Assembly (NCBI GenBank): GCA_037146995.1 | Contig: JBAWWA010000004.1 | Coordinates: 4,077 to 68,076, forward strand | Origin: a bacterium | GTDB lineage: Bacteria; Patescibacteriota; Patescibacteriia; Patescibacteriales; GWE2-39-37 | Direction: 5' to 3' | DNA length: 64,000 nucleotides | Part shown: positions 2,916 through 40,377 of the stretch, piece by piece | How positions within the stretch are numbered: the first letter of the stretch is position 1 | Layout of the letters: every line of letters starts with the position of its first letter | Made by a program: the position numbers and the translations under genes | The notes under the pieces: model-generated | What the model was told of the DNA's origin: nothing | The model's input: only the letters and a program-made list of their open reading frames with translations | Database searches by the model: none

Positions 2916-3842
2916 ATGAATGACCTTGATAAACAAATCGCAAAAGGCATTAGAAAAACCATTACGTGGTATGACATGTTTGATTTCCCTTTAACATTGA
3001 TGGAACTTTGGCGTTTTGGTTTGTATGATGCTGCTTGCGAATTGACAAGCGTCGATAATACTTTGTCTTTAATGCAGAGTGATATTAATCATTCTCATGG
3101 TTTTTACTATCTAAAAGGCCGAGAGGCCATTATTAAGACCAGGCAATTTCGCTATAGTTATGCCGACATTAAAGTTAAAAAAACTCTAAAAATTAGTAAG
3201 CTCTTTAGGTGGATTCCTTGGATAAAATTTATTGCCATCGTTAATATTTATGGTTCAGATAATCTGAAATCAAGTAGCGATATTGATCTTTTTATTATAA
3301 CTGCGCAAGGCAGGATTTGGTTATCACGATTATTCACGGTTGGCCTAATAAAGCTCCTAAATTTAAGGCCAACGAAAAATAATAAGCAGGATAAGTTTTG
3401 CCTAAGTTTTTTTATCGCCGAAAATGATTTAAATTTGACTCGAGTGAGAATAAAAAACGATTTATATTTTTCATACCTGGCTCATTTGATACCGGTTTAT
3501 GATAGGGGTGGCTATCTAGATAAACTTTATTGTGATAATTCATGGTTGAAACTTGATATGCCAAATTTTTCTCATGATCAAATTCATGGTCGACGGCAGG
3601 TCCGGTCATATTTTGGTGATAATTTTTTAAAGTTTAAGACAGTTTTTTTTGACATACTTGAGGCAGTAGTTAAAAAAATTCAATTGCGCATCTTGCCGAG
3701 TGCTATCAGCAACTTGATGAATGTGGACACGAGAGTTGTAATTAATGATAGTATTCTGAAGCTGCATACAAACGATAGTAGGCAACAATTAATTGAGCTT
3801 TATGAAAAAAAATATCATGACCTATTTGGAAAAATTGAATAA
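2916..3842 (+). CDS. Hypothetical protein with a nucleotidyltransferase-fold motif
   Basis: Pol-beta-type NTase signature GS-x8-DID (YGSDNLKSSSDIDLFIIT). Otherwise an orphan. Confidence 0.5.
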   Translation: MNDLDKQIAKGIRKTITWYDMFDFPLTLMELWRFGLYDAACELTSVDNTLSLMQSDINHSHGFYYLKGREAIIKTRQFRYSYADIKVKKTLKISKLFRWIPWIKFIAIVNIYGSDNLKSSSDIDLFIITAQGRIWLSRLFTVGLIKLLNLRPTKNNKQDKFCLSFFIAENDLNLTRVRIKNDLYFSYLAHLIPVYDRGGYLDKLYCDNSWLKLDMPNFSHDQIHGRRQVRSYFGDNFLKFKTVFFDILEAVVKKIQLRILPSAISNLMNVDTRVVINDSILKLHTNDSRQQLIELYEKKYHDLFGKIE

Positions 3843-9368: not shown

Positions 9369-10400
9369 ATGATTAACGTTGAAAAATTAGGCTTACTACT
9401 TGAGCCGACGGCAAATTTATTTGAATCGAGGGCTGTTTTGAATCCTGCAGTTTATCAAGAGGGTAATGATGTGCATATTATCTATAGAGCAATTGATGAT
9501 AAATATGTCTCTTCTTTGGGTTATGCGAAATTGCAGGGGCCAACCACTATCGTTGAGCGCTGGGATAAACCTTTCATGTCGCCAAAAATCAAGGCAGAAT
9601 CAATGGGCATAGAGGATCCGCGAATTGTCAGAATTGATGGTATTTTTTATATGACCTATGTCGCCCATGACGGTAAAAATGCGGTTTCATATTTAGCTTC
9701 AGGGGATAATTTGTTTGAACTTGGTCGAGATGGCTTGATTAGTCCGAAGATTCCTTACAAAGAGGCAGGGGAGATTTTTCGCTATCAGAAATTGAAAGAT
9801 GATTATTATTTTTTTGAGGCATTTTATAAAGAATATGGTGGGAAAAATGTTTTAATCTGGCACAAGGACTCAATTTTATTTCCAGAAAAAATCAATGGAG
9901 AGTTTAAAATGCTGCAAAGGATTTTGCCAGATATCCAGCTTATTGGTTTCGAAGATTTCGGGTCATTAAAAGAGAAATATTTTTGGATAAATTACCTGTT
10001 AAATGATTTGGCAAGCAGTGTGGTGTTAGAGGGGCAACTTAGTTTTGAGGGGCGAAATATTGGCGGTGGTTGTCCGCCAATTAGAACAAAAGATGGTTGG
10101 CTTGTTATTTATCATGGCGTTCAGGAGTCAAATGAAAAACGTGTATATCGAGCTTGTGCCGCCTTGCTTGATTTGAATAACCCACAAAAATTGATTGCAA
10201 AATTGCCATACCCATTGTTTGAGCCAGGTAATGAGGCGGAAAATGTCGGCTTGGTAAATAACGTTGTTTTTCCTACTGGAACTGCGCTATTTGGCGATGA
10301 TCTGTATATATATTATGGCGCAGCAGATACTAGAATCGCTGTGGCAAAAGTCAGTCTAGAGTCGTTATTGAGCGAATTAAAAAATAATCCATTTCATTAG
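9369..10400 (+). CDS. Glycoside hydrolase family 130-like (beta-mannoside phosphorylase-type) protein
   Basis: GH130-like blocks NPAVY..IYRA, GIEDPRIVRIDGIFYMTYVAHDG, YYGAADTRIAVA. I chose ATG 9369; the longer TTG 9327 ORF overlaps the helicase gene. Confidence 0.7.
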   Translation: MINVEKLGLLLEPTANLFESRAVLNPAVYQEGNDVHIIYRAIDDKYVSSLGYAKLQGPTTIVERWDKPFMSPKIKAESMGIEDPRIVRIDGIFYMTYVAHDGKNAVSYLASGDNLFELGRDGLISPKIPYKEAGEIFRYQKLKDDYYFFEAFYKEYGGKNVLIWHKDSILFPEKINGEFKMLQRILPDIQLIGFEDFGSLKEKYFWINYLLNDLASSVVLEGQLSFEGRNIGGGCPPIRTKDGWLVIYHGVQESNEKRVYRACAALLDLNNPQKLIAKLPYPLFEPGNEAENVGLVNNVVFPTGTALFGDDLYIYYGAADTRIAVAKVSLESLLSELKNNPFH

Positions 10401-15368: not shown

Positions 15369-17600
15369 TTAGTCTTTTTTGTATTTGCAGCCTTTGGCTG
15401 AGCAACGAGCACTGCCATCTTCAATTTCTAATAGTAAAGCCGAGCATTCTGGGCATTTTTCACCAGTTGGCTTGGCGGAAAAGCTAGTTTTACAGGTCGG
15501 ATAATTATTGCAGGCAAAAAAAGTACCACGCCTTGAGCGTTTGCTGATAATTTCGCCCGTTTCACAATTTGGACATTTGATGCCTGTTTTTGAGGCTTCA
15601 TTATCAATGCCTTTGATATTTTTGCATTTTGGGTATCCGGAACAGGCAAGAAATGGACCGAATCTGCCAACTTTAACAATCATTGGTGATTGGCACTTGT
15701 CACAAACCTCATCTTTAAATTTTTCCTCCAGTTCTTTGTGGATCGCGAGTTGTTCAGGTGTTTCTTTTTTTAATGATTTGATATTTTTGCAATCAGGGTA
15801 ATTTGAGCAGGCGAGATATTTGCCAAAGCGTCCAATTTTTATAATCATTGGTGATTGGCACTTGTCACAAACCTCCTCGGTTTTTTCTTCCGGCATGATA
15901 TCTTCTTTTTTTAGTTCAGCCGTTTTAATTGCCAAGTTTGCGGCAAAGGGCTCGTAAAACTCTCTAATGACTGGTTGCCAAGGTGTTTTGCCGTCAGAAA
16001 TTTCGTCGAAATTATCCTCCATTTTAGCGGTGAACTCAAAGTCGACGATTTCAGGAAAGTTAGCCACTAACAAATCATTAACTGTGAAAGCAATATCAGT
16101 TGGTTTTAATTTTTTTGCCTCATCTCTTTCGACATAATTTCGTGCTTCAATGGTGGCGATTGTTGGGGCATAAGTTGAAGGTCGACCAATACCGTGTCGT
16201 TCTAAGATTTTAACTAAACCTGCATCGGAATAGCGAGCCGGTGGTTTGGTGAAATGTTGTAGTGGTGCCAGGCTGATAAGATTTAAGATGTCAGTTTCGG
16301 TCACGGCTGGCAGTATGGATTCCTCTGTTGTTTCAGGGTAAATTTTCAAATAGCCATCAAATTTCAAGATTTGGCCGCTGGTCCGGAAGTGATAGGGGGT
16401 ATTTTTTGCCTCGATGTCAATTGAGGTCTGGTCAACGATAGCATTAGGCATTTGACTGGCAATCGCACGTTGCCAAATTAGACGATATAAGCGCAATTGG
16501 CCAGGGTCGATTTTGTTTAATAGTTCTGGTGTTTTATTTGCTTCAGTTGGTCGAATAGCTTCATGAGCTTCTTGTGCGCCTTTTGATTTTGTTTTAAATT
16601 TTCGAGGTTCATTTAGATGATATTTTTCACCGAAACTTGTCGATAAATATTCTTTGGCTTCAGTCAAGAACTTGTCGGACAAATTCAAAGAATCGGTACG
16701 CATATAAGTTATATAGCCCTGTTCGTATAATTTTTGAGCCAGTGTCATGGTTTGCTTGGCGCTCATTCCCAGCATCCTATTTGCAGCCTGCTGAAGAGTT
16801 GAAGTAGTGAATGGCACTGGGGCGGTTTTTTTGCCCGCTCTTTTCTCCACATTTATAACTTGGTATTCTGCATTCAATAATTCAGACTCGATATTTTTTG
16901 CCTCATCCTCATTGCTAATGGCTAGTTTATCAAGTGTCTTGCCATTTTTTTTGTGCAAATTTGCAACCAAGGCTTCATTATTTTTAGTCTCTAGATTTGC
17001 TGAGATCGTCCAGTACTCGTCGGCTTTAAAGGCTTGTATTTCACGTTCACGTTCAACCACTAGTCTGACAGCAACACTTTGGACTCGACCAGCTGACAAG
17101 CCTTTGGCTACTTTTTTCCAGAGAAGGGGGGAGAGTTTGTAGCCAACTAGACGATCCAATACGCGCCTGGCTTGTTGTGCATCAACCATGTCCATGTCAA
17201 TTTCTCTAGGATTTTCTAGAGCATGCAAGATTGCATCCTTTGTAATTTCATGAAAAGCAATTCGTTGGACCAAAACATCGGTCTTTCTTTTTTTCTTGGA
17301 TTTTGTCAGGTCTAGCACCTCGGCCAAATGCCAGGCAATAGCTTCTCCTTCGCGATCTTCATCGGAGGCAAGAATAATCTTGTCAGCTTTAGCAGCAGCT
17401 TTTTTTAAAAGTGAGACTTTTGCTTTGGCCGTAGTTGGGACGATATAGGTTGGCTCAAAATTATTTTCTAGATCGACGCCAAGCTCTCTTTTTGGTAAGT
17501 CGCGCACATGACCAAACGAAGATTCTACTTGAAAATCTTTATTTAAAAACTTTGCGATAGTTTTAGCTTTGGTTGGTGACTCAACAATAATGAGATTCAT
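15369..17600 (-). CDS. topA: DNA topoisomerase I with four C-terminal zinc-ribbon repeats
   Basis: Toprim (IIVESPTKAKTI, SDEDREGEAIAWH), catalytic-Tyr block GYITYMRTDS, and repeated CDKCQSPM..C..C zinc fingers. Confidence 0.97.
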   Translation of the reverse strand: MNLIIVESPTKAKTIAKFLNKDFQVESSFGHVRDLPKRELGVDLENNFEPTYIVPTTAKAKVSLLKKAAAKADKIILASDEDREGEAIAWHLAEVLDLTKSKKKRKTDVLVQRIAFHEITKDAILHALENPREIDMDMVDAQQARRVLDRLVGYKLSPLLWKKVAKGLSAGRVQSVAVRLVVEREREIQAFKADEYWTISANLETKNNEALVANLHKKNGKTLDKLAISNEDEAKNIESELLNAEYQVINVEKRAGKKTAPVPFTTSTLQQAANRMLGMSAKQTMTLAQKLYEQGYITYMRTDSLNLSDKFLTEAKEYLSTSFGEKYHLNEPRKFKTKSKGAQEAHEAIRPTEANKTPELLNKIDPGQLRLYRLIWQRAIASQMPNAIVDQTSIDIEAKNTPYHFRTSGQILKFDGYLKIYPETTEESILPAVTETDILNLISLAPLQHFTKPPARYSDAGLVKILERHGIGRPSTYAPTIATIEARNYVERDEAKKLKPTDIAFTVNDLLVANFPEIVDFEFTAKMEDNFDEISDGKTPWQPVIREFYEPFAANLAIKTAELKKEDIMPEEKTEEVCDKCQSPMIIKIGRFGKYLACSNYPDCKNIKSLKKETPEQLAIHKELEEKFKDEVCDKCQSPMIVKVGRFGPFLACSGYPKCKNIKGIDNEASKTGIKCPNCETGEIISKRSRRGTFFACNNYPTCKTSFSAKPTGEKCPECSALLLEIEDGSARCSAKGCKYKKD

Positions 17601-27855: not shown

Positions 27856-28182
27856 TTACGACAAATCGTTAATTTCTGACACTATTTTATCGTATAATTC
27901 ATCACGGTATTCGTTCCAAGCTTGAATGCTGGCATCACTCAAGCATTCTTTGGCAGCTTCAATTTCACCGACTGCCAAATAGAGATGTGCCCGTTTGAGG
28001 TTTAAGTTTATTTGGGCCAAGGCGTAGTCATTTGTGAGCTCTGCTAGCTTCTCTTGATCAATTGTCCATTCGATGAGTAGTTTCTGGGTTTCAGGGTCTT
28101 TTGCACCCTTGGCTTTAAACGAGTCAATTAATTTTTGTTCATTAACTCTCTCGTTATTGAAAACTGGAAAATTTTCTTTCAT
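27856..28182 (-). CDS. Hypothetical helical protein (108 aa), orphan
   Basis: ORF only; helix-rich, TPR-like composition. No clear Shine-Dalgarno sequence. Confidence 0.5.
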   Translation of the reverse strand: MKENFPVFNNERVNEQKLIDSFKAKGAKDPETQKLLIEWTIDQEKLAELTNDYALAQINLNLKRAHLYLAVGEIEAAKECLSDASIQAWNEYRDELYDKIVSEINDLS

Positions 28183-28274
28183 TTGTTTGACGATGTTTTA
28201 AATCGATAAAAATAAGTTTTTTTGGATTTTTTTATGCAAATAGATTATGGCAGAACAGGGAATGATAGTGACGA

Positions 28275-28293
28275 CGCAGCGATTTTGCCGAAC
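28275..28293 (+). repeat. Copy 1 of a perfect 19-nt direct repeat CGCAGCGATTTTGCCGAAC
   Basis: Identical to 28940-28958. Here it is followed by its own small hairpin TGCCGA-acgta-TCGGCA (28286-28302). Confidence 0.9.
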
Positions 28294-28424
28294 GTATCGG
28301 CATCTCCTTAATAAAAAATAAAAGGGTGGGGAAATTTGAGCCGAGGGAAATTAACTTTCCATTTAAATATGAAAGTGTCGATTTTAAGATCCAGATATGC
28401 CGTGTTCTACGATGTTTCTCAAAA

Positions 28425-28730
28425 CTACTTCTTTATCGGCTCGCACCATTGATAGCTATCCAAACATTTCATCTCATTACGCACATATCCATCACCACAA
28501 ATGTTATTTTCGCTTAGCTTGTAGTTGCCTGCTTTCATAGCACCAACAGACGAAATACAACAATCATCATATTTATTTTTTGACTCACATTTTTTTGCCA
28601 ACTCATCATAATAATCGCCGACACTTGTAACTTCAACTTTTTTATTTAAATGCGTAACTACGTATAATCCAACAGCTGAGGCAACTATAATCGCCCCGAC
28701 TAATAAAACAATCTTCGTTAATTTTTTCAT
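28425..28730 (-). CDS. Small secreted Cys-rich protein (101 aa)
   Basis: N-terminal signal/anchor helix (KIVLLVGAIIVASAVGLYVV) and 7 Cys in the mature part. Lies between the two 19-nt repeat copies. Confidence 0.6.
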   Translation of the reverse strand: MKKLTKIVLLVGAIIVASAVGLYVVTHLNKKVEVTSVGDYYDELAKKCESKNKYDDCCISSVGAMKAGNYKLSENNICGDGYVRNEMKCLDSYQWCEPIKK

Positions 28731-28766
28731 ACGTTTTTAAATGAATAGTTTTGAGAAATTTCGCCC

Positions 28767-28958
28767 AATGGGCCCGGGCTTATGCGAAGTGGCGCCCGCG
28801 ATAGCGAGGCGACATTTCGCATAAGCCCGAGTTCGGCGATGTCGTGGTGACTGCCGAAGGCGGGCGACGCGGCATTGACGGACTCGGGGAACCCGGGCCC
28901 ATTCGGCAAATTAGCGGAGCTGCGAGCGAGAGCGAGAGGCGCAGCGATTTTGCCGAAC
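28767..28958. other. GC-rich multi-helix element (candidate structured ncRNA, folded-DNA recombination site, or MITE)
   Basis: Nested perfect helices: 28767-78/28892-903 (12 bp), 28779-88/28816-25 (10 bp), 28826-32/28882-88 (7 bp), 28832-37/28853-58 (6 bp), 28902-10/28949-57 (9 bp), 28919-24/28940-45 (6 bp). No known RNA-family signature recognised. Confidence 0.6.
28940..28958 (+). repeat. Copy 2 of the perfect 19-nt direct repeat CGCAGCGATTTTGCCGAAC
   Basis: Identical to 28275-28293. Forms the 3' side of the last helix of the GC-rich element. Confidence 0.9.
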
Positions 28959-28964
28959 TCGTTA

Positions 28965-28988
28965 TTATGCGAAGTTTTTTTCGTATAA
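28965..28988. other. 9-6-9 inverted repeat with the geometry of a tyrosine-recombinase core site (dif/att-like candidate)
   Basis: TTATGCGAA (28965-73) - GTTTTT - TTCGTATAA (28980-88). The same 9-mer forms the helix at 28780-88/28816-24. Lies 80 nt upstream of the recombinase ATG. Confidence 0.4.
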
Positions 28989-29005
28989 CATGCCAAATTG
29001 GCATG
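28989..29005. promoter_or_regulatory. Perfect 17-nt palindrome CATGCCAAATTGGCATG upstream of the recombinase gene (operator or binding-site candidate)
   Basis: Read directly: 8-nt arms around a central A, immediately abutting the 9-6-9 repeat. Confidence 0.4.
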
Positions 29006-29068
29006 AAATAGGAAGTTTTGTTAAAATTATTGTAATCATTAACTTTTTAAATTATACCCTTAAATTGT

Positions 29069-29887
29069 ATGAAAAGGGAAGAGTTGCTTCGGCGGATTGA
29101 AAATGAGTTTCGTTTGCGAAATTATAGTCGGCGAACTATTAAGAGCTATTTGGCCTGTTTGGGTGAGTATTTTAAATATATAAAAGAAGTAAATGATCGG
29201 CCGGATGTTGGTAAAATCAAGGATTATCTGCTGACAAAGTTTGACGCTGGTCAGTCATCGAATACGATTAATGTGCACTTGCATGCGATTAAGCATTTTT
29301 ATGAGCAGTTGATGCATTCGTTAGTGAAGATTGAAATTAAATTTGCCAAAACCGCCTCAAAATTGCCAGTTGTGCTTTCGCGGGAAGAGGTACATCGAAT
29401 AATCGACCTGACGCACAATATAAAACATCGTTTAATGCTCGCTTTGGCCTATGCAGCCGGTATGCGCGTTAGCGAGGTAATGAATCTGCGAGTCAAAGAT
29501 ATAAATGAGAGTGAATTAATTATTCATATCAAGGGTGCAAAAGGGAATAAAGATCGGATTACTGTTTTTCCTGAGAAGCTTTTGGGGGATATTCAGATAG
29601 TTTTGAATGGTAGAAATATTAATGATTTTGTCTTCGCAAAGGTGAATGGTGAAAGATTAACTGAGAGGACAGCACAAATGGTGTTTGGGCAGGCGCTAAT
29701 GCGAGCAAATATTCAAAAAGACGCTTCTTTTCATTCACTTCGACACTCCTTTGCGACGCATTTACTGGAAAATGGCGTCGATCTGCGCTATATACAGGAG
29801 CTACTTGGTCATGCTAATATCAAGACTACACAAATTTATACGCATGTTACTAATCCAGGGTTAAAAAATATCAAGAGTCCGTTTTAA
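29069..29887 (+). CDS. Tyrosine site-specific recombinase, IntI/XerD-like (SAM-like N-domain plus catalytic domain), lacking the integron-integrase-specific insertion
   Basis: LAYAAGMRVSEVMNLRVKDI..IHIKGAKGNKDRITVFP, catalytic HSLRHSFATHLLENG, LLGHANIKTTQIYTH (R..HxxR..Y). The stop overlaps the dus start (TAATG). Confidence 0.9.
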   Translation: MKREELLRRIENEFRLRNYSRRTIKSYLACLGEYFKYIKEVNDRPDVGKIKDYLLTKFDAGQSSNTINVHLHAIKHFYEQLMHSLVKIEIKFAKTASKLPVVLSREEVHRIIDLTHNIKHRLMLALAYAAGMRVSEVMNLRVKDINESELIIHIKGAKGNKDRITVFPEKLLGDIQIVLNGRNINDFVFAKVNGERLTERTAQMVFGQALMRANIQKDASFHSLRHSFATHLLENGVDLRYIQELLGHANIKTTQIYTHVTNPGLKNIKSPF

Positions 29888-30858
29888 TGTTTATGTCTAA
29901 TTTTTGGCAACAATTGAAGAATGCTGGTCAGCCAATCTTGGCGCTGGCGCCCATGGCAGGCGTTTCTGACAGGCCTTTCCGCCAAATTTGTAAAGAGTTT
30001 GGGGCTGATGTTTTGTATTCTGAGATGGCAAGCGCAACGGCCCTGAATTACAAGCCTGAGAAGACTTTAGAGCTAGTCAAATTTGATCGCGAGATTGAGT
30101 CGCCTTATGTGGTTCAACTTTTTGGCTCTAATCCGGAGTATTTTGCTAAAGCCGCTCGGATGATTACTGAAGTCATTCGACCAGGCGGGATCGATATAAA
30201 TTTTGGCTGTCCTGTGCCCAAGGTGCAAAAGCAAGGGGCGGGGGCGGTTTTGATGGGCAATCCAAAATTGGCACGTGAAGTGGTTGAAGCGACAATGAGC
30301 GGTACTAGTCTCCCAGTCTCGATCAAAATTCGGGCTCGCATGGAAAAAGGCGAGGGTGATGCCAAGCGTCGCGTTGATGCCTTGGAGTTTTTGGAAACTA
30401 TGAACGGTTTACCGATTGCTGCCGTGATGATCCATGGCCGTTCGATGGCGCAGGGCCATGTCGGCAGTGTTGATTTTCAGATCATCAAGGACGCTCGACA
30501 GTATGTAGCTGGAGTTTTACTAGCCAATGGCGGAGTTATTGGTGTGGCGAGTGCCAAGCAAATGCTCGTCGAGACAGGTGCTGATGGTCTTGGAGTGGCA
30601 CGCGGGGCTATGGGCAAGCCATGGATATTTGAGCAAATAAAATTGCAAGCAGAAAAGACGTGGGCAAGCGACAGAATATTTGAGGCGGCGCTCAAGCATG
30701 CTGAATTGGCTGATCGACTACTTGGCCAACAAGGCATTATAGAGCTGCGCAAGCATTTGTGTTGGTATATGACTGGTTTTGCTGGTGCGGCAGAGTTGCG
30801 CAGTCGCCTAGTACATGTTCAGACGCTTGAGGAGATTAGATCGATATTAAAAAGTTAA
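29887..30858 (+). CDS. dus: tRNA-dihydrouridine synthase
   Basis: LAPMAGVSDRPFR, VQLFGSNPE, DINFGCPVPKV, IHGRS. An alternative ATG lies at 29893. Confidence 0.9.
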   Translation: MFMSNFWQQLKNAGQPILALAPMAGVSDRPFRQICKEFGADVLYSEMASATALNYKPEKTLELVKFDREIESPYVVQLFGSNPEYFAKAARMITEVIRPGGIDINFGCPVPKVQKQGAGAVLMGNPKLAREVVEATMSGTSLPVSIKIRARMEKGEGDAKRRVDALEFLETMNGLPIAAVMIHGRSMAQGHVGSVDFQIIKDARQYVAGVLLANGGVIGVASAKQMLVETGADGLGVARGAMGKPWIFEQIKLQAEKTWASDRIFEAALKHAELADRLLGQQGIIELRKHLCWYMTGFAGAAELRSRLVHVQTLEEIRSILKS

Positions 30859-30909
30859 AATAAAAAAAATCGCTTGAAGCGATTTTTTTATTTGCCGTGC
30901 TTGATAAAA

Positions 30910-31878
30910 TTAGAGCCATTTTTTACGTTTGAAAATCATGATAATCGAAAAGGCGACAACGCCCATAATACCGACTATGACCCAGAAGGCATAGGGCCGA
31001 TTAACGATGGGCATGTTTTCCGTCCGCATCGCGAACAGGGCGGCGATGAAGGTCAGGTAAAAACTGATGATCGAAAAGACGGTCAAAGTCTTCATAATCT
31101 CTGACAAACGGTAGTTGAGGAGTGATTCGTTCGTGCTATTGAGAATCTCAATCGTTTCTTTTTGATTTTCGAGTATTTCCCAGATGGTGATCGAGTAGTC
31201 GATTAATTTTTTGTAGCATTCTTGGAGTTGTTTGGGCGAGACCAGCGTCGACTTCATCTCCATTAACTTGGTGATGATTTTTTTATGTGAATGCATGGTC
31301 GTGCTGAAATTGATGACGTTGTGCCTGAGAGCCAGGATTTCCGAGACTGCTTTTTTGGAGTCTTGTTGAAAAATTCTTTCTTGGACGCGTCTAATCTCTA
31401 GACTGATTTGGTCAAGCAAAGGGAAACAGCCATTGAGTAATTTGTCCATTAGTTCATAGAGCAAGATACTAGAAGACTCTAGCTTATAAGAAAGCAAACC
31501 TTCACCGTCTTTTTTGCATAAGCTAAAAAAATCAGTTAGGGCGGGTAAGTTGCCATTGTGAATTGTGACTAAAAAGCCATGACCAATGAAAAAATCAACC
31601 TCGGTTACGATCACCGTATGGTCGATGATGATGGGAAAATGGAGGACAGCAAAAATATAACCATCATAATGGTGAATGGCGGGACGTTGGGTAAAAACAT
31701 TAGCCGAGCACTGTTGCAGGTGGGTCAGCTGGAAACCGAATTTTTTGCGTAAATACTCAATTTCTTTTTTGCCAGCATTAACAACATTAACCCAAGCCAC
31801 TTTTTTGTTGATGGTTCTCGGGTTATCAATGGCGATTTCTTGGATGTTGCGCGTAAGCAGTATTTCCTCCTTGGGCAT
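30910..31878 (-). CDS. CorA-family divalent-cation transporter homologue with AMR in place of the GMN signature
   Basis: C-terminus YLTFIAALFAMRTENMPIV..KRKKWL aligns by eye with CorA PLTFIAGIYGMNFEYMPEL..KKKKWL. Start taken at ATG 31878 (MPKEEILL), 6 nt after a TATAAT box. Confidence 0.8.
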   Translation of the reverse strand: MPKEEILLTRNIQEIAIDNPRTINKKVAWVNVVNAGKKEIEYLRKKFGFQLTHLQQCSANVFTQRPAIHHYDGYIFAVLHFPIIIDHTVIVTEVDFFIGHGFLVTIHNGNLPALTDFFSLCKKDGEGLLSYKLESSSILLYELMDKLLNGCFPLLDQISLEIRRVQERIFQQDSKKAVSEILALRHNVINFSTTMHSHKKIITKLMEMKSTLVSPKQLQECYKKLIDYSITIWEILENQKETIEILNSTNESLLNYRLSEIMKTLTVFSIISFYLTFIAALFAMRTENMPIVNRPYAFWVIVGIMGVVAFSIIMIFKRKKWL

Positions 31879-31960
31879 AAAAATATTATAGCACAATTTG
31901 ACAAAAACGGTAAAATTTTTTAGGGTAACCATGTTCTTTAAATTAAAATGGAGGTGACGC

Positions 31961-32722
31961 TTGAAAAAACTCAATAAGATAATTGTTTTAAAAATTGGCT
32001 CGAAGGCAGTGACCAAAGATGGTTATATCAATAAGCCGTTGCTTTTGAATGTCTCTCGCGATATTAAATTAGTTAAAGCTAGGGGGTACGAGGTAGTGGT
32101 TGTCTCATCAGGTGCAGTGACTTGCGGCAGGACCCTATATCAGTCAGTGTCTAAAAAGGTTTTGAGTGATCAATGTCTTGCAATGATCGGTCAGCCGCTA
32201 CTGATGCAACATTGGACCTGGGCCCTTGAACATCATGGCCAAATTGTCGGTCAAGCGCTATTTACGAATTCGGCCTTGAAAAGCGAGTTGCGCAGACGCT
32301 CGGTTTTGATGGGGATTAATGATTGTTTACTAGCTGGCATAGTGCCAATTGTTAATGAAAATGATGCAGTAATTACGGATGAACTCAAGGAGATTGGCAC
32401 CGAAGGGGATAATGATCAGGTTTCGGCAAATTTAGCCATTGGGCTTGAGGCGGAAATGCTGGTTTTCTTAACTACCGTGCCCTATGTTGAAGACCCAGTT
32501 ACTGGCACGGCGATAAAAATTATTGAGGCAAGTAACGATACTCTGGAAAAAACTTTAAGCAGAAGACAAGGTGATAGCAGCGGTGGCATGGCCTCAAAAA
32601 TCAAGTATGGCCGGAAATTTGCCATGACGGGAGGCGAAGCGATAATCAAGCATTTTAGTTGCAATTTGCCAATGAGTCGCATTATGAGTGGTCTCTATGA
32701 AGGCACAGTTATTAAACGATAA
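31961..32722 (+). CDS. proB: Glutamate 5-kinase (amino-acid-kinase fold, no PUA domain)
   Basis: IVLKIGSKAVT, VVVSSGAV..GR, PIVNENDAV, GDNDQVSANLA, GGMASKI. TTG start with GGAGGTGA upstream. Confidence 0.8.
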   Translation: MKKLNKIIVLKIGSKAVTKDGYINKPLLLNVSRDIKLVKARGYEVVVVSSGAVTCGRTLYQSVSKKVLSDQCLAMIGQPLLMQHWTWALEHHGQIVGQALFTNSALKSELRRRSVLMGINDCLLAGIVPIVNENDAVITDELKEIGTEGDNDQVSANLAIGLEAEMLVFLTTVPYVEDPVTGTAIKIIEASNDTLEKTLSRRQGDSSGGMASKIKYGRKFAMTGGEAIIKHFSCNLPMSRIMSGLYEGTVIKR

Positions 32723-32802
32723 ATATTTAACACTGACGAAAAGTCAGTGTTTTTTTATATTTAGTAAATTGTGGTATAATATAACTTAACTGTGTATAAA
32801 CT

Positions 32803-33303
32803 ATGGCGACAGAAAAAGTTGTTAATAATTCTGAAAATCAATCGATTGACGGACGAATCATGAAAGTTGACGAGAGTCAGTCTTTTGAGCGTAGACCAGA
32901 CTTGCCAAGTCAAGCAATAGAACGCAGTGATAATAGTCAGGATGAAGGTGTTTCCAATAAGGAAGTCAAAAGCTCAGGTAGTCGTCTACCGTTACCAGTA
33001 CCGCCAAGTCTTGCCAGCTCTGAACAAGAAAAGAAAATTGAAAATATTTTAGCTCGCGACGTGGTTGAGTTGTACAAGGGTTTGAAAGATGCGGACAAGC
33101 TAAAATTCAAAAAAGAGGGCGAAACGACCGCTAAAAAAATCAGTAGTTTACTAGACGAGGGTAAGGTGCAAGTTTCTAAGATTTTTAATTTAATTAAAAA
33201 TTGGCTTAGTATGCTGTCTGGAGTAAATAAATACTTCATCGAGCAGGAGGCCAAAATCAAAGTTGATGAAATTATTCAGCTCAAGAAGGGGGGTGAACAA
33301 TGA
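32803..33303 (+). CDS. Hypothetical protein (166 aa), low-complexity N-terminus; translationally coupled to the pilin-like gene
   Basis: ORF only; ATGA overlap with the next gene at 33300-33303. Confidence 0.55.
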   Translation: MATEKVVNNSENQSIDGRIMKVDESQSFERRPDLPSQAIERSDNSQDEGVSNKEVKSSGSRLPLPVPPSLASSEQEKKIENILARDVVELYKGLKDADKLKFKKEGETTAKKISSLLDEGKVQVSKIFNLIKNWLSMLSGVNKYFIEQEAKIKVDEIIQLKKGGEQ

Positions 33304-33713
33304 AAAAAATAGTTAAACATTTGTTAGGTTTGATGGCTATAGTTGTTTTGTTCGCACCTGTATTGTCTGTACACGCGATTAGCAAGGATACGATGTTTGG
33401 TGGCAGTTCGATCAAAAGCAATACGGTTGGCGCAATCGGTTTGGCTGAATATGATGAAAATAAAAATGACCCGCGTATCATTATTGCTAATGTGATCAAG
33501 TTTATGCTTGGCTTCCTTGGTATTATCGCTGTTATTATTATTTTATTTGCTGGCTTTAAGTGGATGACCGCTGGTGGCGATAGCAAGAAAATTGACGAGG
33601 CAAAGGATTTAATGAAAAACGGCGTCATGGGCTTGATTATTATCTTGTCATCATGGGCAATCGCCAACTTCGTTATTGATCAATTGTTGAATGTTACTGG
33701 TAATGGGGCATAG
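33300..33713 (+). CDS. TrbC/VirB2-type (T4SS pilin-like) small membrane protein
   Basis: Signal peptide (LGLMAIVVLFAPVLSVHA) plus two hydrophobic helices separated by a charged loop (FKWMTAGGDSKKIDEAKDLMKNG), which is the VirB2/TrbC architecture. Confidence 0.65.
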   Translation: MKKIVKHLLGLMAIVVLFAPVLSVHAISKDTMFGGSSIKSNTVGAIGLAEYDENKNDPRIIIANVIKFMLGFLGIIAVIIILFAGFKWMTAGGDSKKIDEAKDLMKNGVMGLIIILSSWAIANFVIDQLLNVTGNGA

Positions 33714-33750
33714 TATACTTAGTTAAAAGTTTCGATTAAAAACGTTTTTA

Positions 33751-36285
33751 ATGGATTATCAATTGGAGGGAAATCCATCTTCAATAGTAGGGCTAACCAA
33801 CAAATCCACTGCAGATATCTTGCTTACGGATTTGTTTTGGTTTGCCCTATTTTTTGTAGTCCTTATTTTGCTGATTGTTGTAATAAAAAAAATCGCCAGA
33901 AACTGGCTAATTAAGCATCGTTATTTTGACAACGTCATTTATTTAGTACGACTCTCAAAAGAAAAACCACAGGATCAAGACAAAGAAACAACTGTTCAAC
34001 AAATGCGTGAAGAAATTGCTCACGGCGAAGTTATTTTTGCGGCGATCGGTGGTCTGCGGGCCGAGCGGGGCTTTAAAGCATGGTTGAAAGCCAGGTTTGA
34101 TCATTTTTCATTTGAAATAGTAGCCAATAAAAAGCAAATCGCTTTTTATATCGTCTCTTCGCGCAACATGTCTCGTTATATCGAGCAGCAAGTCCAATCG
34201 AACTACCCAGACGCTACCATGGAGATTGTAGCAGATTATAATATTTTTCAACCCAGTTCGGTTATTAAAGCTGGATATGTTAAAACGAGGCGTAATTTCA
34301 TCTTTGGGATCAAAACTTATAATAAAATGGAGACTGATCCGACGAGTTCGATAATCAATGTTATGTCGAAGTTGTCGGAAACAGAAAGTATCGCGGTGCA
34401 ATATGTCGTCCGTAGCGCCCATCCGCGCTGGCATCGTCGGATTACCAAAATCTTTCGCCTGGTTAGAAAGGGCAAGAACTTAAATGAGGCAATTAGGCGC
34501 AATACTGGGTCAGTGGTTTTTGAATTTTTTGCCGATTTTTTCCGTTTGGCTTTTGTGTCCAGTAAGGACAAGGAAAAAGAAAAGCAAACCCAGTTCAATC
34601 AAAAACCATCGGCCATGGATGAACAGATTCTTAAGAATTTCGAGGAGAAAAACGGCAAAGCTGGCCTGGATGTTAATGTTAGGATCGTGGCGAGTGCTGA
34701 CACGGAGGTGCAGGCGAAAATGCTACTTGATAATGTGGTCGGCGCTTTTAATCTGTGTAATTATTACGAGTATGGCAATAGTTTTAATACCACGCCAAAC
34801 ATGCGTAACAATCTGGTGACCGATTTTATAAATCGGCGTTTTGATGAAAAAATTAGTTTTTTATTGAATACTGAGGAATTAACGACTATTTGGCATTTGC
34901 CCTTGAAATGGATTGAAACGCCCAATATTCTTTGGTTGACAGCCAAGTCGGCACCTGCGCCATCGAACATACCAAGCGAGGGAATTTCACTAGGTTATAA
35001 TGAATTCAGGGGAGTTAAGAAAGAGATATGTTTTAAGCGTGAGGATCGGCGTCGTCATACATATGTAATCGGTAAATCTGGTGTTGGTAAATCGATTCTA
35101 TTGGCCAATATGGCTATTCAAGACGTTTTGAATGGTGATGGTATTTGTGTGATTGACCCGCATGGTGATTTGGTACAAGATATTCTTGAGCGCATCCCAG
35201 CTGAACGGGCAGAGGATGTAATTGTATTTTCACCTGGTGATATTGAGCGGCCGATTGCTTTGAATTTGCTCGAATTTGATCCGAAGTATCCTGAACAAAA
35301 GACCTTTATGATCAATGAAATGATCAAGATTTTTGACAAGCTCTATGATTTGAAGGCAACTGGCGGACCGATTTTTGAGCAATACATCCGTAATGCTATG
35401 TTGCTCATTATGGCTGATCCGGAATCAGGTTCGACCTTGATGGAAATTCCCAAGGTATTGTCTGATCCTGAGTTTAGGAATATGAAATTAAATCGCTGCA
35501 AAGACCAGACGGTAGTTGATTTTTGGCGTAAAGAGGCGGAAAAGGCTGGTGGTGATGCAGCTCTGGCTAATGTTGTGCCCTATATCACCTCAAAATTAAC
35601 GACTTTTATTTCAAATGATATGATGCGGCCGATTATTGGTCAGCAAGTCAGTTCATTTAATTTTCGCGAGGTCATGGATCAGCGCAAGATTTTATTGGTT
35701 AATTTGCCCAAGGGGCAAATCGGAGAAATAAACGCCTATTTATTAGGTATGATACTCGTAGGCAAGATTTTAGTTGCGGCCTTGTCACGCACCGATTTGC
35801 GCAAAGAGGATCGTAAGGATTTTTATCTGTATATTGATGAGTTTCAAAATTTTACCACTGATTCAATTTCCGCAATTTTATCTGAGGCCAGAAAATACGG
35901 CTTGAGTTTGATTATAGCGCATCAGTATATTGGACAATTAGTTAAAAATAATGACCAAGCGATAAAAAACGCCGTATTTGGTAACGTTGGTACGATTGTT
36001 TCATTCAAGATTGGTTCAGAAGATGCCAAGGAAATTGAAAAAGAAGTTGCGCCAGTCTTTAATGAATTTGATTTGCTGAACGTGGATGCGTATAATGCTT
36101 ATGTGAAATTGCTGGTTGATAATGCGGCTAGTCGACCATTCTCGATGCATACCAATTGGCCAATGCCTGGAGTACAAAATATCGAGCTTGCCAGGCGTAT
36201 CACTTCATTGTCACGCCTTAAGTATGGCCAGGACCGTAATATTATTGAAGCAGAGATTTTTAGACGAACTCAATCAGAGTTTTAA
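33751..36285 (+). CDS. Membrane-anchored VirD4/TraG/TraD-like (FtsK/HerA superfamily) P-loop ATPase
   Basis: N-terminal TM, about 400 aa of unknown domain, then Walker A IGKSGVGKS, Walker B FYLYIDEFQNF, and SLIIAHQYIGQL. Confidence 0.75.
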   Translation: MDYQLEGNPSSIVGLTNKSTADILLTDLFWFALFFVVLILLIVVIKKIARNWLIKHRYFDNVIYLVRLSKEKPQDQDKETTVQQMREEIAHGEVIFAAIGGLRAERGFKAWLKARFDHFSFEIVANKKQIAFYIVSSRNMSRYIEQQVQSNYPDATMEIVADYNIFQPSSVIKAGYVKTRRNFIFGIKTYNKMETDPTSSIINVMSKLSETESIAVQYVVRSAHPRWHRRITKIFRLVRKGKNLNEAIRRNTGSVVFEFFADFFRLAFVSSKDKEKEKQTQFNQKPSAMDEQILKNFEEKNGKAGLDVNVRIVASADTEVQAKMLLDNVVGAFNLCNYYEYGNSFNTTPNMRNNLVTDFINRRFDEKISFLLNTEELTTIWHLPLKWIETPNILWLTAKSAPAPSNIPSEGISLGYNEFRGVKKEICFKREDRRRHTYVIGKSGVGKSILLANMAIQDVLNGDGICVIDPHGDLVQDILERIPAERAEDVIVFSPGDIERPIALNLLEFDPKYPEQKTFMINEMIKIFDKLYDLKATGGPIFEQYIRNAMLLIMADPESGSTLMEIPKVLSDPEFRNMKLNRCKDQTVVDFWRKEAEKAGGDAALANVVPYITSKLTTFISNDMMRPIIGQQVSSFNFREVMDQRKILLVNLPKGQIGEINAYLLGMILVGKILVAALSRTDLRKEDRKDFYLYIDEFQNFTTDSISAILSEARKYGLSLIIAHQYIGQLVKNNDQAIKNAVFGNVGTIVSFKIGSEDAKEIEKEVAPVFNEFDLLNVDAYNAYVKLLVDNAASRPFSMHTNWPMPGVQNIELARRITSLSRLKYGQDRNIIEAEIFRRTQSEF

Positions 36286-39258: not shown

Positions 39259-39329
39259 TCGGGGATCGTCTAGTGGTAGGACAACAGGTTCTGGTCCTGT
39301 TAACTGAGGTTCGAATCCTTGTCCCCGAG
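39259..39329 (+). tRNA. tRNA-Gln (anticodon CUG), CCA not encoded
   Basis: Cloverleaf folded by hand: acceptor UCGGGGA/UCCCCGA with U1-A72 and G73, D stem GUCU/GGAC, anticodon arm ACAGG-UUCUGGU-CCUGU, T arm UGAGG-UUCGAAU-CCUUG. Confidence 0.9.
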
Positions 39330-39375
39330 CATAAAGCAAAAAATGATTCAATAAATTTATTAATAAAATATTTGT

Positions 39376-39555: not shown

Positions 39556-40377
39556 TTAGCGATTATATTTGGCCACTTCACGGGCTGCGCTTAATTTGTA
39601 ATAATTTATAGAAACATCGTCAATCCATTTTTTTACACTTACTGGGTCATGGCCAGCACAGGTCGAACCGCATTTCCAGCTGATCATTTGTGCCGGTGTC
39701 TTGCTGCCATGGCTTAACATTTCTGAAATTTTACCGCCAACGACAGCTATGGCATGTTCAGGTGAGTTAAAACAAGAATAGCCAGATGCGGTTGTATTTT
39801 CCTTGCCACGATAACCCCAATAATTGAAGCATTCATGACCATTTTTTTTGGGTGAGAATTTGCCGAATTTACTTTCTTTCATGGCAATACCAACTAAATA
39901 AGCTGCAACCGGTCGATCTTTTTGAGCCATTGCTACTGTCATAGTCTCCATGGGTGTGCCTTTGATAATAGCTCTGATATCATCGTCTAGTTTTTTGATT
40001 TCCGTAATTTTGTGACTATTTATAGATTTGCCTGTTACCGGATAATTATAGGTCCAATCGGCCTGAGGTGGCCAATTGATTTTGCTTATTTGATTATGGT
40101 AGCAGTATACGCTAAACGAGCGGGGTTTTATAAGATTATAAGTGGTTATTGAAAGTAATAACAACATAGCAACTAAGGCTGGCTTTTTAAATTGAGCTAA
40201 TGAAAGTATAAAAGATTTTTTTGTAATCTTTTCATCGTTCGATTTAAAACGTGTCTTGATGGATAGTTGTATTTTTCTTTTAGCAAGTGTTTTGTGGCGA
40301 TTTTTGGATATTTTTTTCATAAAATTAACTAAAACCGAAAAAACAAAAAAGTAGCAATTGGCTACTTTGATTTGCAT
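39556..40377 (-). CDS. Hypothetical membrane-anchored exported protein (weak resemblance to cell-wall hydrolases)
   Basis: One TM helix (PALVAMLLLLSITTYNLI), then a Cys/Trp-containing globular domain (AMKESKFG, NYWGYRG). The start may be ATG 40320. Confidence 0.5.
   Translation of the reverse strand: MQIKVANCYFFVFSVLVNFMKKISKNRHKTLAKRKIQLSIKTRFKSNDEKITKKSFILSLAQFKKPALVAMLLLLSITTYNLIKPRSFSVYCYHNQISKINWPPQADWTYNYPVTGKSINSHKITEIKKLDDDIRAIIKGTPMETMTVAMAQKDRPVAAYLVGIAMKESKFGKFSPKKNGHECFNYWGYRGKENTTASGYSCFNSPEHAIAVVGGKISEMLSHGSKTPAQMISWKCGSTCAGHDPVSVKKWIDDVSINYYKLSAAREVAKYNR

Follow-up and report, generated by a model that had tools for sequence, protein, structure and literature searches.

We analysed a 64,000-nucleotide stretch of patescibacterial DNA (the window), in which a GC-rich element, referred to below as module A, occupies positions 28767-28958 and ends 110 nt before the start of a tyrosine recombinase gene. 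Module A is probably the repeat unit of an integron-like mobile cassette array and probably not a free-standing RNA gene. It belongs to an array linked to the recombinase gene, its borders lie at defined junctions, and the ends of the associated cassettes are common to different genomes; its fold is selected and strand-specific. The interpretation that we favor, and consider fairly probable, is that module A serves as a folded single-stranded-DNA recombination module in a site-specific cassette array, situated upstream of a XerA/IntI-like recombinase gene in many genomes of the candidate phyla radiation (CPR). A preliminary description of the element had offered three hypotheses, namely, a novel noncoding RNA (ncRNA), a folded single-stranded DNA substrate, and a miniature inverted-repeat transposable element (MITE). 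The second fits best, in view of the junction borders, the copies of core-site arms, the arrays, and the strand-biased, covarying fold.

Folding of the GC-rich element

The region 28767-28958 is a GC island, with a GC content of 0.65 inside the element and of 0.53-0.57 in 200-nt windows, as compared with 0.31-0.44 in the DNA around it. Folds, covariation, homologues, arrays, and a second assembly together define module A as a plus-strand unit consisting of a three-way junction and a 3' hairpin. In the predicted fold, helix P1 (28768-28778 paired with 28892-28902) closes the junction, and two hairpins lie inside it, P2 (28779-28791 with 28813-28825) and P3 (28826-28835 with 28879-28888, 28837-28846 with 28868-28877, and 28851-28855 with 28859-28863). 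P4 (28903-28910 with 28949-28956) forms the separate 3' hairpin, the 3' strand of which is the L arm of the recombination site described below. The multi-helix element of the preliminary description is real, with P1, P2, P3, P4, and the inner GCTGCG/CGCAGC helix where they had been placed. The one listed helix that did not hold is P3a (28832-28837 with 28853-28858), which is absent from the minimum-energy fold; P3 is extended there instead.

The RNA fold of the plus strand has a predicted energy of -122 kcal/mol, whereas 200 dinucleotide shuffles gave -82 ± 4 kcal/mol (z = -9.8) and none equalled the native value. With DNA parameters, the plus strand folded at -69.7 kcal/mol (z = -9.3). The minus strand was weaker with either parameter set (RNA, -95.9 kcal/mol, z = -5.2; DNA, -54.2 kcal/mol, z = -5.9), and the plus strand was the more stable of the two in all 11 related elements, with RNA and DNA parameters alike. 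C-GNA-G triloops make up 14 of the 37 predicted hairpin loops, and the pentamer CGNAG occurs 42 times on the plus strand and 6 times on the minus strand, the number in shuffles being 12 ± 3.4. GNA triloops of the d(GCGAAGC) type form exceptionally stable DNA minihairpins; stable RNA hairpins favor GNRA and UNCG tetraloops.

The absence of a tRNA, a tmRNA, or a known RNA family, as noted in the preliminary description, was confirmed. A search of the whole window with Rfam 15 at gathering thresholds gave the tRNA-Gln at 39259 as the sole match, with none at module A, and a permissive scan of 28600-29100 returned only chance matches of the miRNA and snoRNA kind, at least 28 bits under threshold. 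Six homologous loci gave no Rfam match. ARAGORN found no tRNA or tmRNA at module A or in four related loci, and only tRNA-Gln (39259-39330) in the window. Neither a promoter-like site directly upstream of module A nor a terminator after it was found. The coding capacity of the element is nil, as all open reading frames (ORFs) overlapping it give low-complexity translations. The region upstream (28180-28430) has no significant structure (z = +0.4), and the window contains one full copy of module A.

Relatives of module A and covariation of its helices

We fetched 66 CPR loci encoding recombinase orthologues 40-70% identical; these are designated by L numbers. Relatives of module A detected by nhmmer and blastn lie on the plus strand only, directly upstream of recombinase orthologues. 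The same outcome was obtained with a covariance model built from the window element alone as a single sequence and scanned over 525 kb of related loci: all matches to module A were on the plus strand and directly upstream of recombinase orthologues, and one further match was the window element's own palindromic minus strand. The full model matched L002, L003, L009, L023, L083, and L085, the closer homologues only; turning the filters off added L015, L037, and L096, and sequence search added L018. The linkage to the recombinase that had been proposed for the element is real, in that its homologues lie with recombinase orthologues and not as many unlinked, near-identical copies. The hosts extend from Parcubacteria, Moranbacteria, and Wolfebacteria through Gracilibacteria, and the architecture is kept from Parcubacteria to Gracilibacteria although the recombinases share just 44-70% identity with that of the window.

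All of these relatives follow a common plan, in which P1 comes right after an upstream L arm ending in AA(C/T), P2 and P3 lie within P1, and P4 is next; in each relative, the L arm of the site is provided by the 3' strand of P4. P1 measures 8-15 bp, and its sequence is different in every genome. Copies of module A are near-identical within one genome and diverged between genomes. Because a full-element MAFFT alignment was structurally useless and the covariance model with filters off forced poor global alignments, covariation was tested on register-anchored P1 and P4 segments. In nine genomes, 97.2% of the cells in these segments pair and 15 of the 20 pairs have changed on both sides, with the register of P4, but not that of P1, having been set by complementarity. 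None of 500 shuffles attained this level, and slid registers pair at 29-40%. P1 strands paired with their own partner at 8.8 of 9 positions, as compared with 4.75 of 9 for partners taken from other genomes. Furthermore, covariation extends to the base that follows AA and its partner inside module A (T-A in four genomes, C-G in four, and one mismatch), which would place the crossover at AA^C, that is, at the boundary between arm and center (a caret marks a border in the sequences given here). The covarying helices and the plus-strand bias together indicate that the fold is under selection, and on one strand. Conservation and compensatory changes in related genomes, the lack of which would have told against the proposal of the preliminary description, are both present.

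The dif-like site and its copies inside module A

Module A ends within a dif-like core site of 28 bp (28947-28974, plus strand), which consists of the L arm ATTTTGCCGAA, the center CTCGTT, and the R arm ATTATGCGAAG. The consensus of the site, in an 11-6-11 arrangement, is ATTTCGCATAA-CTCGTT-TATATGCGAAC. Both arms are the same box, L being roughly the reverse complement of R. A pattern made up of the L arm ATTT(C/T)G-nnn-AAC, a 7-nt gap, and the R arm TAT(G/A)CGAA matched in 45 of 65 CPR upstream regions, and 43 of these matches are the conserved site, which lies at a median of 113 nt before the recombinase start codon. The gap from AAC to TATRCGAA is 7 nt in 42 of the 45 pattern matches. Tyrosine recombinases cut at the arm/center boundary, and the crossover in the window would accordingly be expected at AA^C, between 28957 and 28958. 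We also considered whether the site is the chromosomal dif at the replication terminus. This was ruled out, since the GC skew is positive (+0.06 to +0.22) in every 4-kb segment of the 64 kb and does not change sign near 28.9 kb or anywhere else in the window.

The preliminary description had noted a 9-mer common to module A and the core-site-like repeat. The common sequence is present, but it is actually an 11-mer, TTATGCGAAGT. Altogether, module A holds about three boxes of each arm type in addition to its covarying GC-rich helices. At its P2/P3 junction (28812-28847, minus strand) there is an inverted pseudo-copy of the whole site, which reads ACATCGCCGAAC^TCGGGC^TTATGCGAAAT; the main site, written in the same way, is GATTTTGCCGAAC^TCGTTA^TTATGCGAAGT. 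The same feature, with genome-specific arms, occurs in L009 and, by reading of the sequences, also in L003 and L083. In the predicted folded plus strand, P2 corresponds to a duplex R arm, P3 to a duplex center and an L-like arm, and P4 to the duplex terminal L arm. Coaxial P2 and P3 would rebuild the site in this predicted fold, with the branch to P1 opposite the arm/center boundary.

Modules and order of the cassette array

Along the plus strand toward the recombinase gene, the array has the order A-B-M, repeated, then a last copy of module A, and then the 28-bp site. Each module opens with an R-arm-like box and closes with an L-arm-like box ending in AA(C/T), so that every inter-module junction resembles a recombination site. 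Indeed, the module junctions all carry an L arm, a spacer, and an R arm, and the module borders fall at AA^C, the arm/center boundary of the dif-like site.

A feature missed in the preliminary description marks the distal junction of the array in the window. This is the 19-nt L-arm repeat CGCAGCGATTTTGCCGAAC at 28275-28293 (plus strand), a direct repeat of the 3' end of module A; after it comes GTATCGGCAT, with which module B starts. The junction AAC^GTATCGGCA is also found after internal copies of module A in L002, L003, and L084, and internal copies are followed by GT(A/T)TCGGCA..GAAGT, the start of module B. Module B (28294-28403, plus strand) is an AT-rich inter-cassette element with the terminal inverted repeats GTATCGGCATCT and AGATATGCCGT and with an R-arm-like box at its 5' end; homologues with covarying terminal stems occupy the same position in L002, L003, L004, L018, and L084. 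Module M (28404-28769) is the gene cassette. It begins with GTTCTACGATGT, ends with the L arm ATTTCGCCCAAT (28758-28769), and contains inverted repeats (28410-28435 and 28738-28763) and a minus-strand ORF of 101 aa (28425-28730) that belongs to no Pfam family.

Generally, module M begins with GTT-nnnn-GATGT, has one minus-strand ORF in most cases, and ends with ATTTC-nnnn-AA(C/T). Most of the cassette ORFs, which are small, have no Pfam family. Inverted repeats of 36-79 nt flank the ORF in 14 of the 15 other tabulated loci, and the right repeat ends within a few nucleotides of the AAC preceding the site in about 11 loci. Approximately 135 nt before the L arm of module M are conserved between genomes at 82-98% (L006, 3466-3600; L018, 3575-3709; L011, about 3780-3830). 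The right ends carry, on the minus strand, the strong ribosome-binding site AGAGGGGG and the start codon of the cassette ORF, so the cassettes seem to bring their own expression signals.

Arrays with several copies of module A were identified in three other genomes. L002 (Parcubacteria) has four direct copies, in which the block of identity runs exactly from AAT^GG to AAC^ and between which lie 0.8-1.6 kb of unrelated, gene-bearing DNA. L018, a complete genome of Wolfebacteria, has three direct copies, its two cassettes being flanked by a clpB-like gene and the site, and L037 (Gracilibacteria) has two identical copies. The last copy always abuts the conserved site in these three loci. The copies of module A number one more than the cassettes in L002, L018, and the second assembly, and alternate strictly with B-M units. 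Arrays of B-M units that contain no module A are present in L004, L005, L008, L084, and others.

Two observations were made on other cassette borders. In L091 (1960-3888), a whole cassette is present as a perfect tandem duplication of 966 nt that ends exactly at the AAC of the site. A secondary junction with a distinct center, AA(C/T)^GT(T/C)AGGGA^TATACGAAGTTT, is common to L007 (597), L013 (490), and L089 (85), and its sequence suggests that cassette starts include a second conserved class.

Junctions in a second assembly and in other genomes

Three contigs of a second assembly (sample ERZ27300110; L161, L162, and L163) cover the locus. L161 is 100% identical to 28767-35887 of the window, and the six bases before 28767 differ. 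L162 carries 28243-28958 of the window with one mismatch, up to GCCGAAC^. Past 28958, it continues into a different module B, an ORF of 148 aa, and the beginning of a second copy of module A, which overlaps L161. This structure indicates that the population in the second assembly has one more cassette, inserted between 28958 and 28959; the window and the second assembly together thus contain two cassettes. L163 ends at 28261. The distal copy of module A in L162 has G in place of C at 28905, in the 5' strand of P4, and with this base the strand complements the L arm of the neighboring cassette (GCCCAAT) and not that of module A itself; the change could have been left by strand exchange, or it may be no more than a single-nucleotide polymorphism (SNP). 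The first 55 nt of L162 in window orientation (ena:ERZ27300110:k141_229285) are an Illumina Nextera adapter (…TCGTCGGCAGCGTCAGATGTGTATAAGAGACAG), a contamination of the assembly.

Cassette ends are also common to different genomes. L006 and L018 have such ends at 82-84% identity around different ORFs, and module A lies between GTTGAAC^ and the site in L018 only. Cassette-end blocks that are 77-98% identical occupy rank 1 in one genome and rank 2 or higher in another; for example, positions -57 to 0 of L005 match -785 to -729 of L084, where module B follows. In addition, 21 of the 66 contigs break off upstream of the recombinase gene at a distance of no more than about 350 nt, which is the outcome expected of repeats that exceed the assembly k-mer in length.

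A full copy of the site, ATTTCATCCTAAC^TCGTTATTATGCGAACT, was found at 9703-9721 (minus strand) of a phage contig, L165 (IMGVR_UViG_3300025065_000185), which has genes for a terminase large subunit and a replication initiator; no recombinase homologue was found within the 13.6 kb fetched. The other three of the four site matches in viral contigs lie inside genes and look like chance matches. By analogy, the L165 site may be an attP with which a phage makes use of the host recombinase, as integrative mobile elements that exploit Xer (IMEX) do.

The recombinase gene and its surroundings

The 272-aa tyrosine recombinase encoded at 29069-29887 (plus strand; PF00589, 3e-43) is XerA-like and resembles a short IntI; its start lies 110 nt downstream of module A, as had been noted. 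It scored 216 bits with the NCBIfam model XerA_Arch (cut-off 220) and 201 bits with the integron integrase model TIGR02249 (cut-off 265). The nearest solved structures are Pyrococcus XerA (4a8e, 2.5e-43), Thermoplasma XerA, and VchIntI4 (2a3v, 1e-37). The alignment with 2a3v is in two pieces, residues 9-174 and 242-316, and the 272-aa protein does not have the segment between them. By sequence, the protein matches the 'Cand' subgroup of simple tyrosine recombinases, which lack the integron-integrase insertion. The subgroup has been reported from candidate phyla only, with no function assigned (bioRxiv 10.1101/542381). The locus has only one recombinase gene. We found no further recombinase or Xer paralogue; the one other ORF checked (39556-40377), picked because it is similar in length, has no Pfam domain.

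Between the site and the gene, an additional inverted copy of the R arm, TTATACGAA, is present at 28980-28988 (minus strand) and forms with 28965-28973 the 9-bp inverted repeat that had been described as core-site-like in the preliminary description. The best promoter-like site, TTGGCA-18-TAAAAT (28998-29027, plus strand), is downstream of both module A and the site, and its -35 hexamer is overlapped by a perfect palindrome, CATGCCAAATTGGCATG (28990-29006, plus strand). The sequence of 28990-29027 makes it the probable promoter and operator of the recombinase gene. In many related loci, a further R-arm copy, TTATGCGAAAT, is situated between a TTGTAT -35 and a TATAAT -10 element. The palindrome and R-arm copies embedded in these promoter sequences suggest that the recombinase may repress its own gene. 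In two Peribacteria-like loci (L025, about 190-290; L102, about 1440-1580), long G-rich runs between the site and the recombinase gene consist of (GGTGAGG)n and GGGG tracts with G-quadruplex potential.

Farther away, at 32803-36285 (4-7 kb downstream of the recombinase gene), the window contains a gene resembling those for type IV secretion system pilins and a gene for a VirD4/TraG-type coupling protein, which constitute a possible route for the transfer of single-stranded DNA. Two tandem copies of a 115-nt unit at 15612-15891 (77% identical, 165 nt apart) are unrelated to module A.

Discussion

In the mechanism that we propose, the plus strand of module A, when single-stranded, would fold into the three-way junction and hairpin and would offer the recombinase compact, pre-formed duplex arms as a substrate. 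The recombinase could use folded module A to capture, excise, or shuffle cassettes at the adjacent site, with the exchange occurring on one strand and being completed by replication. One possibility is that module A supplies the L arm with a pairing partner close by, whereas otherwise the partner would be an entire ORF distant. That the folded species is DNA and not RNA is what we infer from the content of sites, the loop chemistry, the absence of transcription signals, and the analogy with attC and with attP(+) of CTX phage; the active junction and the exchange of single strands likewise belong to the model. Of the two strands, the plus strand is the richer in G, both here and in 48 of 55 loci. 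A G-rich plus strand is, under the customary reading of skew, the lagging-strand template and thus periodically single-stranded. This is suggestive of how the plus strand of module A might become available for folding, but it is confounded by gene orientation.

Several observations weigh against folded single-stranded DNA as the working form of module A. The asymmetry between strands, that is, G.T versus A.C pairs, would be equally expected if an RNA were made from the plus strand. The borders that we observed (28767-28769 and 28958) are not at the internal copy of the site at P2/P3. Because lineages without module A keep their arrays of B-M cassettes, the module is dispensable and could be a passenger. 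In the inverted repeats of module M, the excess of G.T over A.C is not significant (28 versus 15, p = 0.066), and the argument for folding therefore rests on module A and not on module M. The junction types differ in their centers (CTCGTT, GTATCG, and GGGCCC), which is awkward for a classical two-strand exchange. Finally, the window and the second assembly could differ in part because the 192-nt repeat collapsed in one of them, although the two also differ by SNPs elsewhere (5 in 2.8 kb), which speaks against this.

The passenger argument can be carried further. Module A might be a selfish mini-cassette without an ORF, a MITE-like element that exploits the recombinase and spreads by means of its arms, with the hairpins being a by-product that has no function. 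Module A is absent from many lineages that have cassette arrays, its presence or absence is clean when L018 is compared with L006, its copies are near-identical within a genome and diverged between genomes, and it has neither coding capacity nor an Rfam family; all of this would be expected of such an element. The hypothesis does not account for P1 and the GC-rich helix extensions, which lie outside the arm boxes and covary perfectly, so that folding itself must be selected. Nor does it predict strict alternation with B-M units, copies numbering one more than the cassettes with no insertion at random junctions, or an architecture maintained from Parcubacteria to Gracilibacteria across recombinases 44-70% identical to that of the window. 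We regard it as rather unlikely. The MITE hypothesis of the preliminary description stands insofar as module A is repeated, noncoding, and apparently mobile, and falls on the distribution of the copies, which are not dispersed but occur in direct orientation in the array only.

If module A were instead transcribed from the plus strand, it could be a structured ncRNA that acts as a regulator or cofactor of the recombinase or as an mRNA leader, its helices imitating the DNA site and thereby allowing the protein to bind its own RNA. The strong covariation and the GC-rich composition in an AT-rich genome are compatible with this view, as are the very stable fold as RNA, the confinement of G.U pairs to the plus strand, and the position of module A, 110 nt upstream of the recombinase gene and in the same sense. 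It is nevertheless an improbable explanation. There is no promoter-like site directly upstream and no terminator after the element, the best promoter of the recombinase gene is downstream of it, and in L002 identical copies have differing sequences upstream. The copies in arrays are 0.8-1.6 kb apart and far from the recombinase gene, and the ends of the module are recombination junctions. GNA triloops dominate in place of GNRA or UNCG tetraloops, and no Rfam family was found in seven loci. Guiding by base pairing is ruled out, because the site-like sequences are buried in stems. The novel ncRNA of the preliminary description has therefore gained no positive support: it lacks a promoter, a terminator, and an Rfam relative, its triloops are of the DNA type, and its ends are at crossover points. 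A very unlikely alternative is that module A functions purely as double-stranded DNA, as an accessory region with extra recombinase-binding sites that shape the synaptic complex, as in cer/psi or the arm sites of phage attP, and that pairing within a strand is irrelevant. The several L-like and R-like boxes, the one full inverted copy of the site, and the direct contact of module A with the core site would agree with such a role. An accessory region would be predicted to show conserved boxes and not compensatory changes, yet P1 differs in each genome while 97% of the cells remain complementary. The advantage of the plus over the minus strand and the strand-specific GNA triloops would be meaningless for duplex DNA.

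We conclude that module A is probably not a new class of RNA and that it points to a cassette platform, not yet described, that extends over a major bacterial radiation. Whether this is a phylum-wide gene-capture platform of CPR bacteria parallel to integrons, composed of a minimal 'Cand' recombinase, a dif-like site, and composite sites of folded single-stranded DNA (A and B) that would jointly capture, excise, and reorder cassettes, with module A as the lineage-specific counterpart of attC, is a question on which we are evenly divided. In the literature that we searched on integrons, attC, cassettes, and tyrosine recombinases, we found no description of this arrangement in CPR bacteria, Patescibacteria, or Parcubacteria. 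Integrons are the textbook case of a tyrosine recombinase and folded single-stranded DNA collecting gene cassettes, and, to our knowledge, there is no settled account of the origin of integrons from Xer-like recombinases or of the origin of attC sites and cassettes. The locus looks like a parallel or intermediate solution, with a recombinase of the Xer/XerA type, a symmetric dif-like site, and cassette arrays with structured repeats. CPR bacteria are ultra-small episymbionts with genomes of about 1 Mb, and their means of gene exchange are poorly known. If our interpretation is correct, the 'Cand' recombinase family gains a function, a hotspot at which strains vary and metagenome assemblies break is identified, and a compact pair of recombinase and folded site becomes available for mechanistic study.

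Comparison with known systems

The resemblance to integrons is extensive. In both, a tyrosine recombinase gene lies by a primary site at the head of a direct array of ORFs that are small, can seldom be annotated, and for the most part diverge from the recombinase gene. The inter-cassette repeat keeps its structure and not its sequence across species, is near-identical within one chromosomal array, and folds better on one strand. The crossover reads AA^C on the strand that folds and G^TT on the strand in the sense of the ORFs, and in integron sites the crossover is likewise at the arm/center boundary on the bottom strand. The recombinase itself attained 201 bits with the integron-integrase model and matched VchIntI4 at 1e-37. 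On the other hand, it does not have the IntI-specific insertion (about residues 175-241 of VchIntIA), and the repeat is a three-way junction and hairpin of 150-240 nt, whereas attC is a single bulged hairpin of 55-140 nt, an imperfect palindrome that has R''/L''-L'/R' boxes and extrahelical bases and serves as substrate in the form of its bottom strand. Integrons also have no counterpart of the second element, B, or of the long inverted repeats around each ORF. The right ends of module M that we examined (those of L006 and L011, for example) bear a strong ribosome-binding site and perhaps a promoter, which would set them apart from integron cassettes, usually promoterless, and the primary site is symmetric and dif-like (11-6-11).

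The pdif/dif modules of Acinetobacter are likewise small modules of genes that lie between 28-bp Xer-type sites and move as a unit (PMC12907356). The XerC arm of these modules, ATTTCGTATAA, is nearly the same as the arm described here, ATTTCG(C/T)ATAA (PMC12907356). Their module ends are inverted repeats, as are those of module M, and the same cassette-end blocks were found here in different contexts. The systems differ in that a single recombinase, with its gene attached to the array, takes the place of host XerC and XerD acting in trans, and in that the arms are identical in place of distinct XerC and XerD arms alternating as C/D and D/C. Furthermore, the arrays reported here are chromosomal, are in direct orientation, contain GC-rich structured modules, and reside in CPR hosts. 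In IMEX, among them CTX phage with an attP(+) that takes the shape of a forked hairpin, a single strand folds, as predicted here, such that inverted copies of the site form a duplex Xer target mimicking dif. Integration occurs there at the arm/center boundary with little homology in the rest of the center, a feature shared by the present junctions that would imply exchange of one strand completed by replication. Module A, unlike IMEX, does not constitute a phage genome, being a noncoding unit of about 190 nt that is repeated in an array, and the target is not at a GC-skew switch. Genuine IMEX-type users of the site may also exist, given the phage contig L165.

Systems with a single Xer recombinase (XerS/difSL, XerH/difH, and archaeal XerA/dif) resemble the locus in having one Xer-family recombinase with a 28-bp site immediately upstream of its gene, and XerA is the closest solved structure. 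As in dif, the putative site has 28 bp, two inverted 11-bp arms, and a 6-bp center, and lies at a fixed distance from the gene. The sites of those systems are at the replication terminus and resolve chromosome dimers, whereas the site described here heads a cassette array. MITEs and the repetitive extragenic palindromic (REP) and bacterial interspersed mosaic (BIME) elements are, like module A, short, noncoding, hairpin-forming, and present in multiple copies. The copies of module A, however, are not dispersed, there being one in 64 kb and all others in arrays; no transposase or REP-associated tyrosine transposase is involved; the ends of the module (AA^T and AA^C) are core-site arms; and there is no target-site duplication of the kind seen with MITEs. 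The system is integron-like, and it is also like the Xer-based dif modules and IMEX, but it departs from each of them in defining features.

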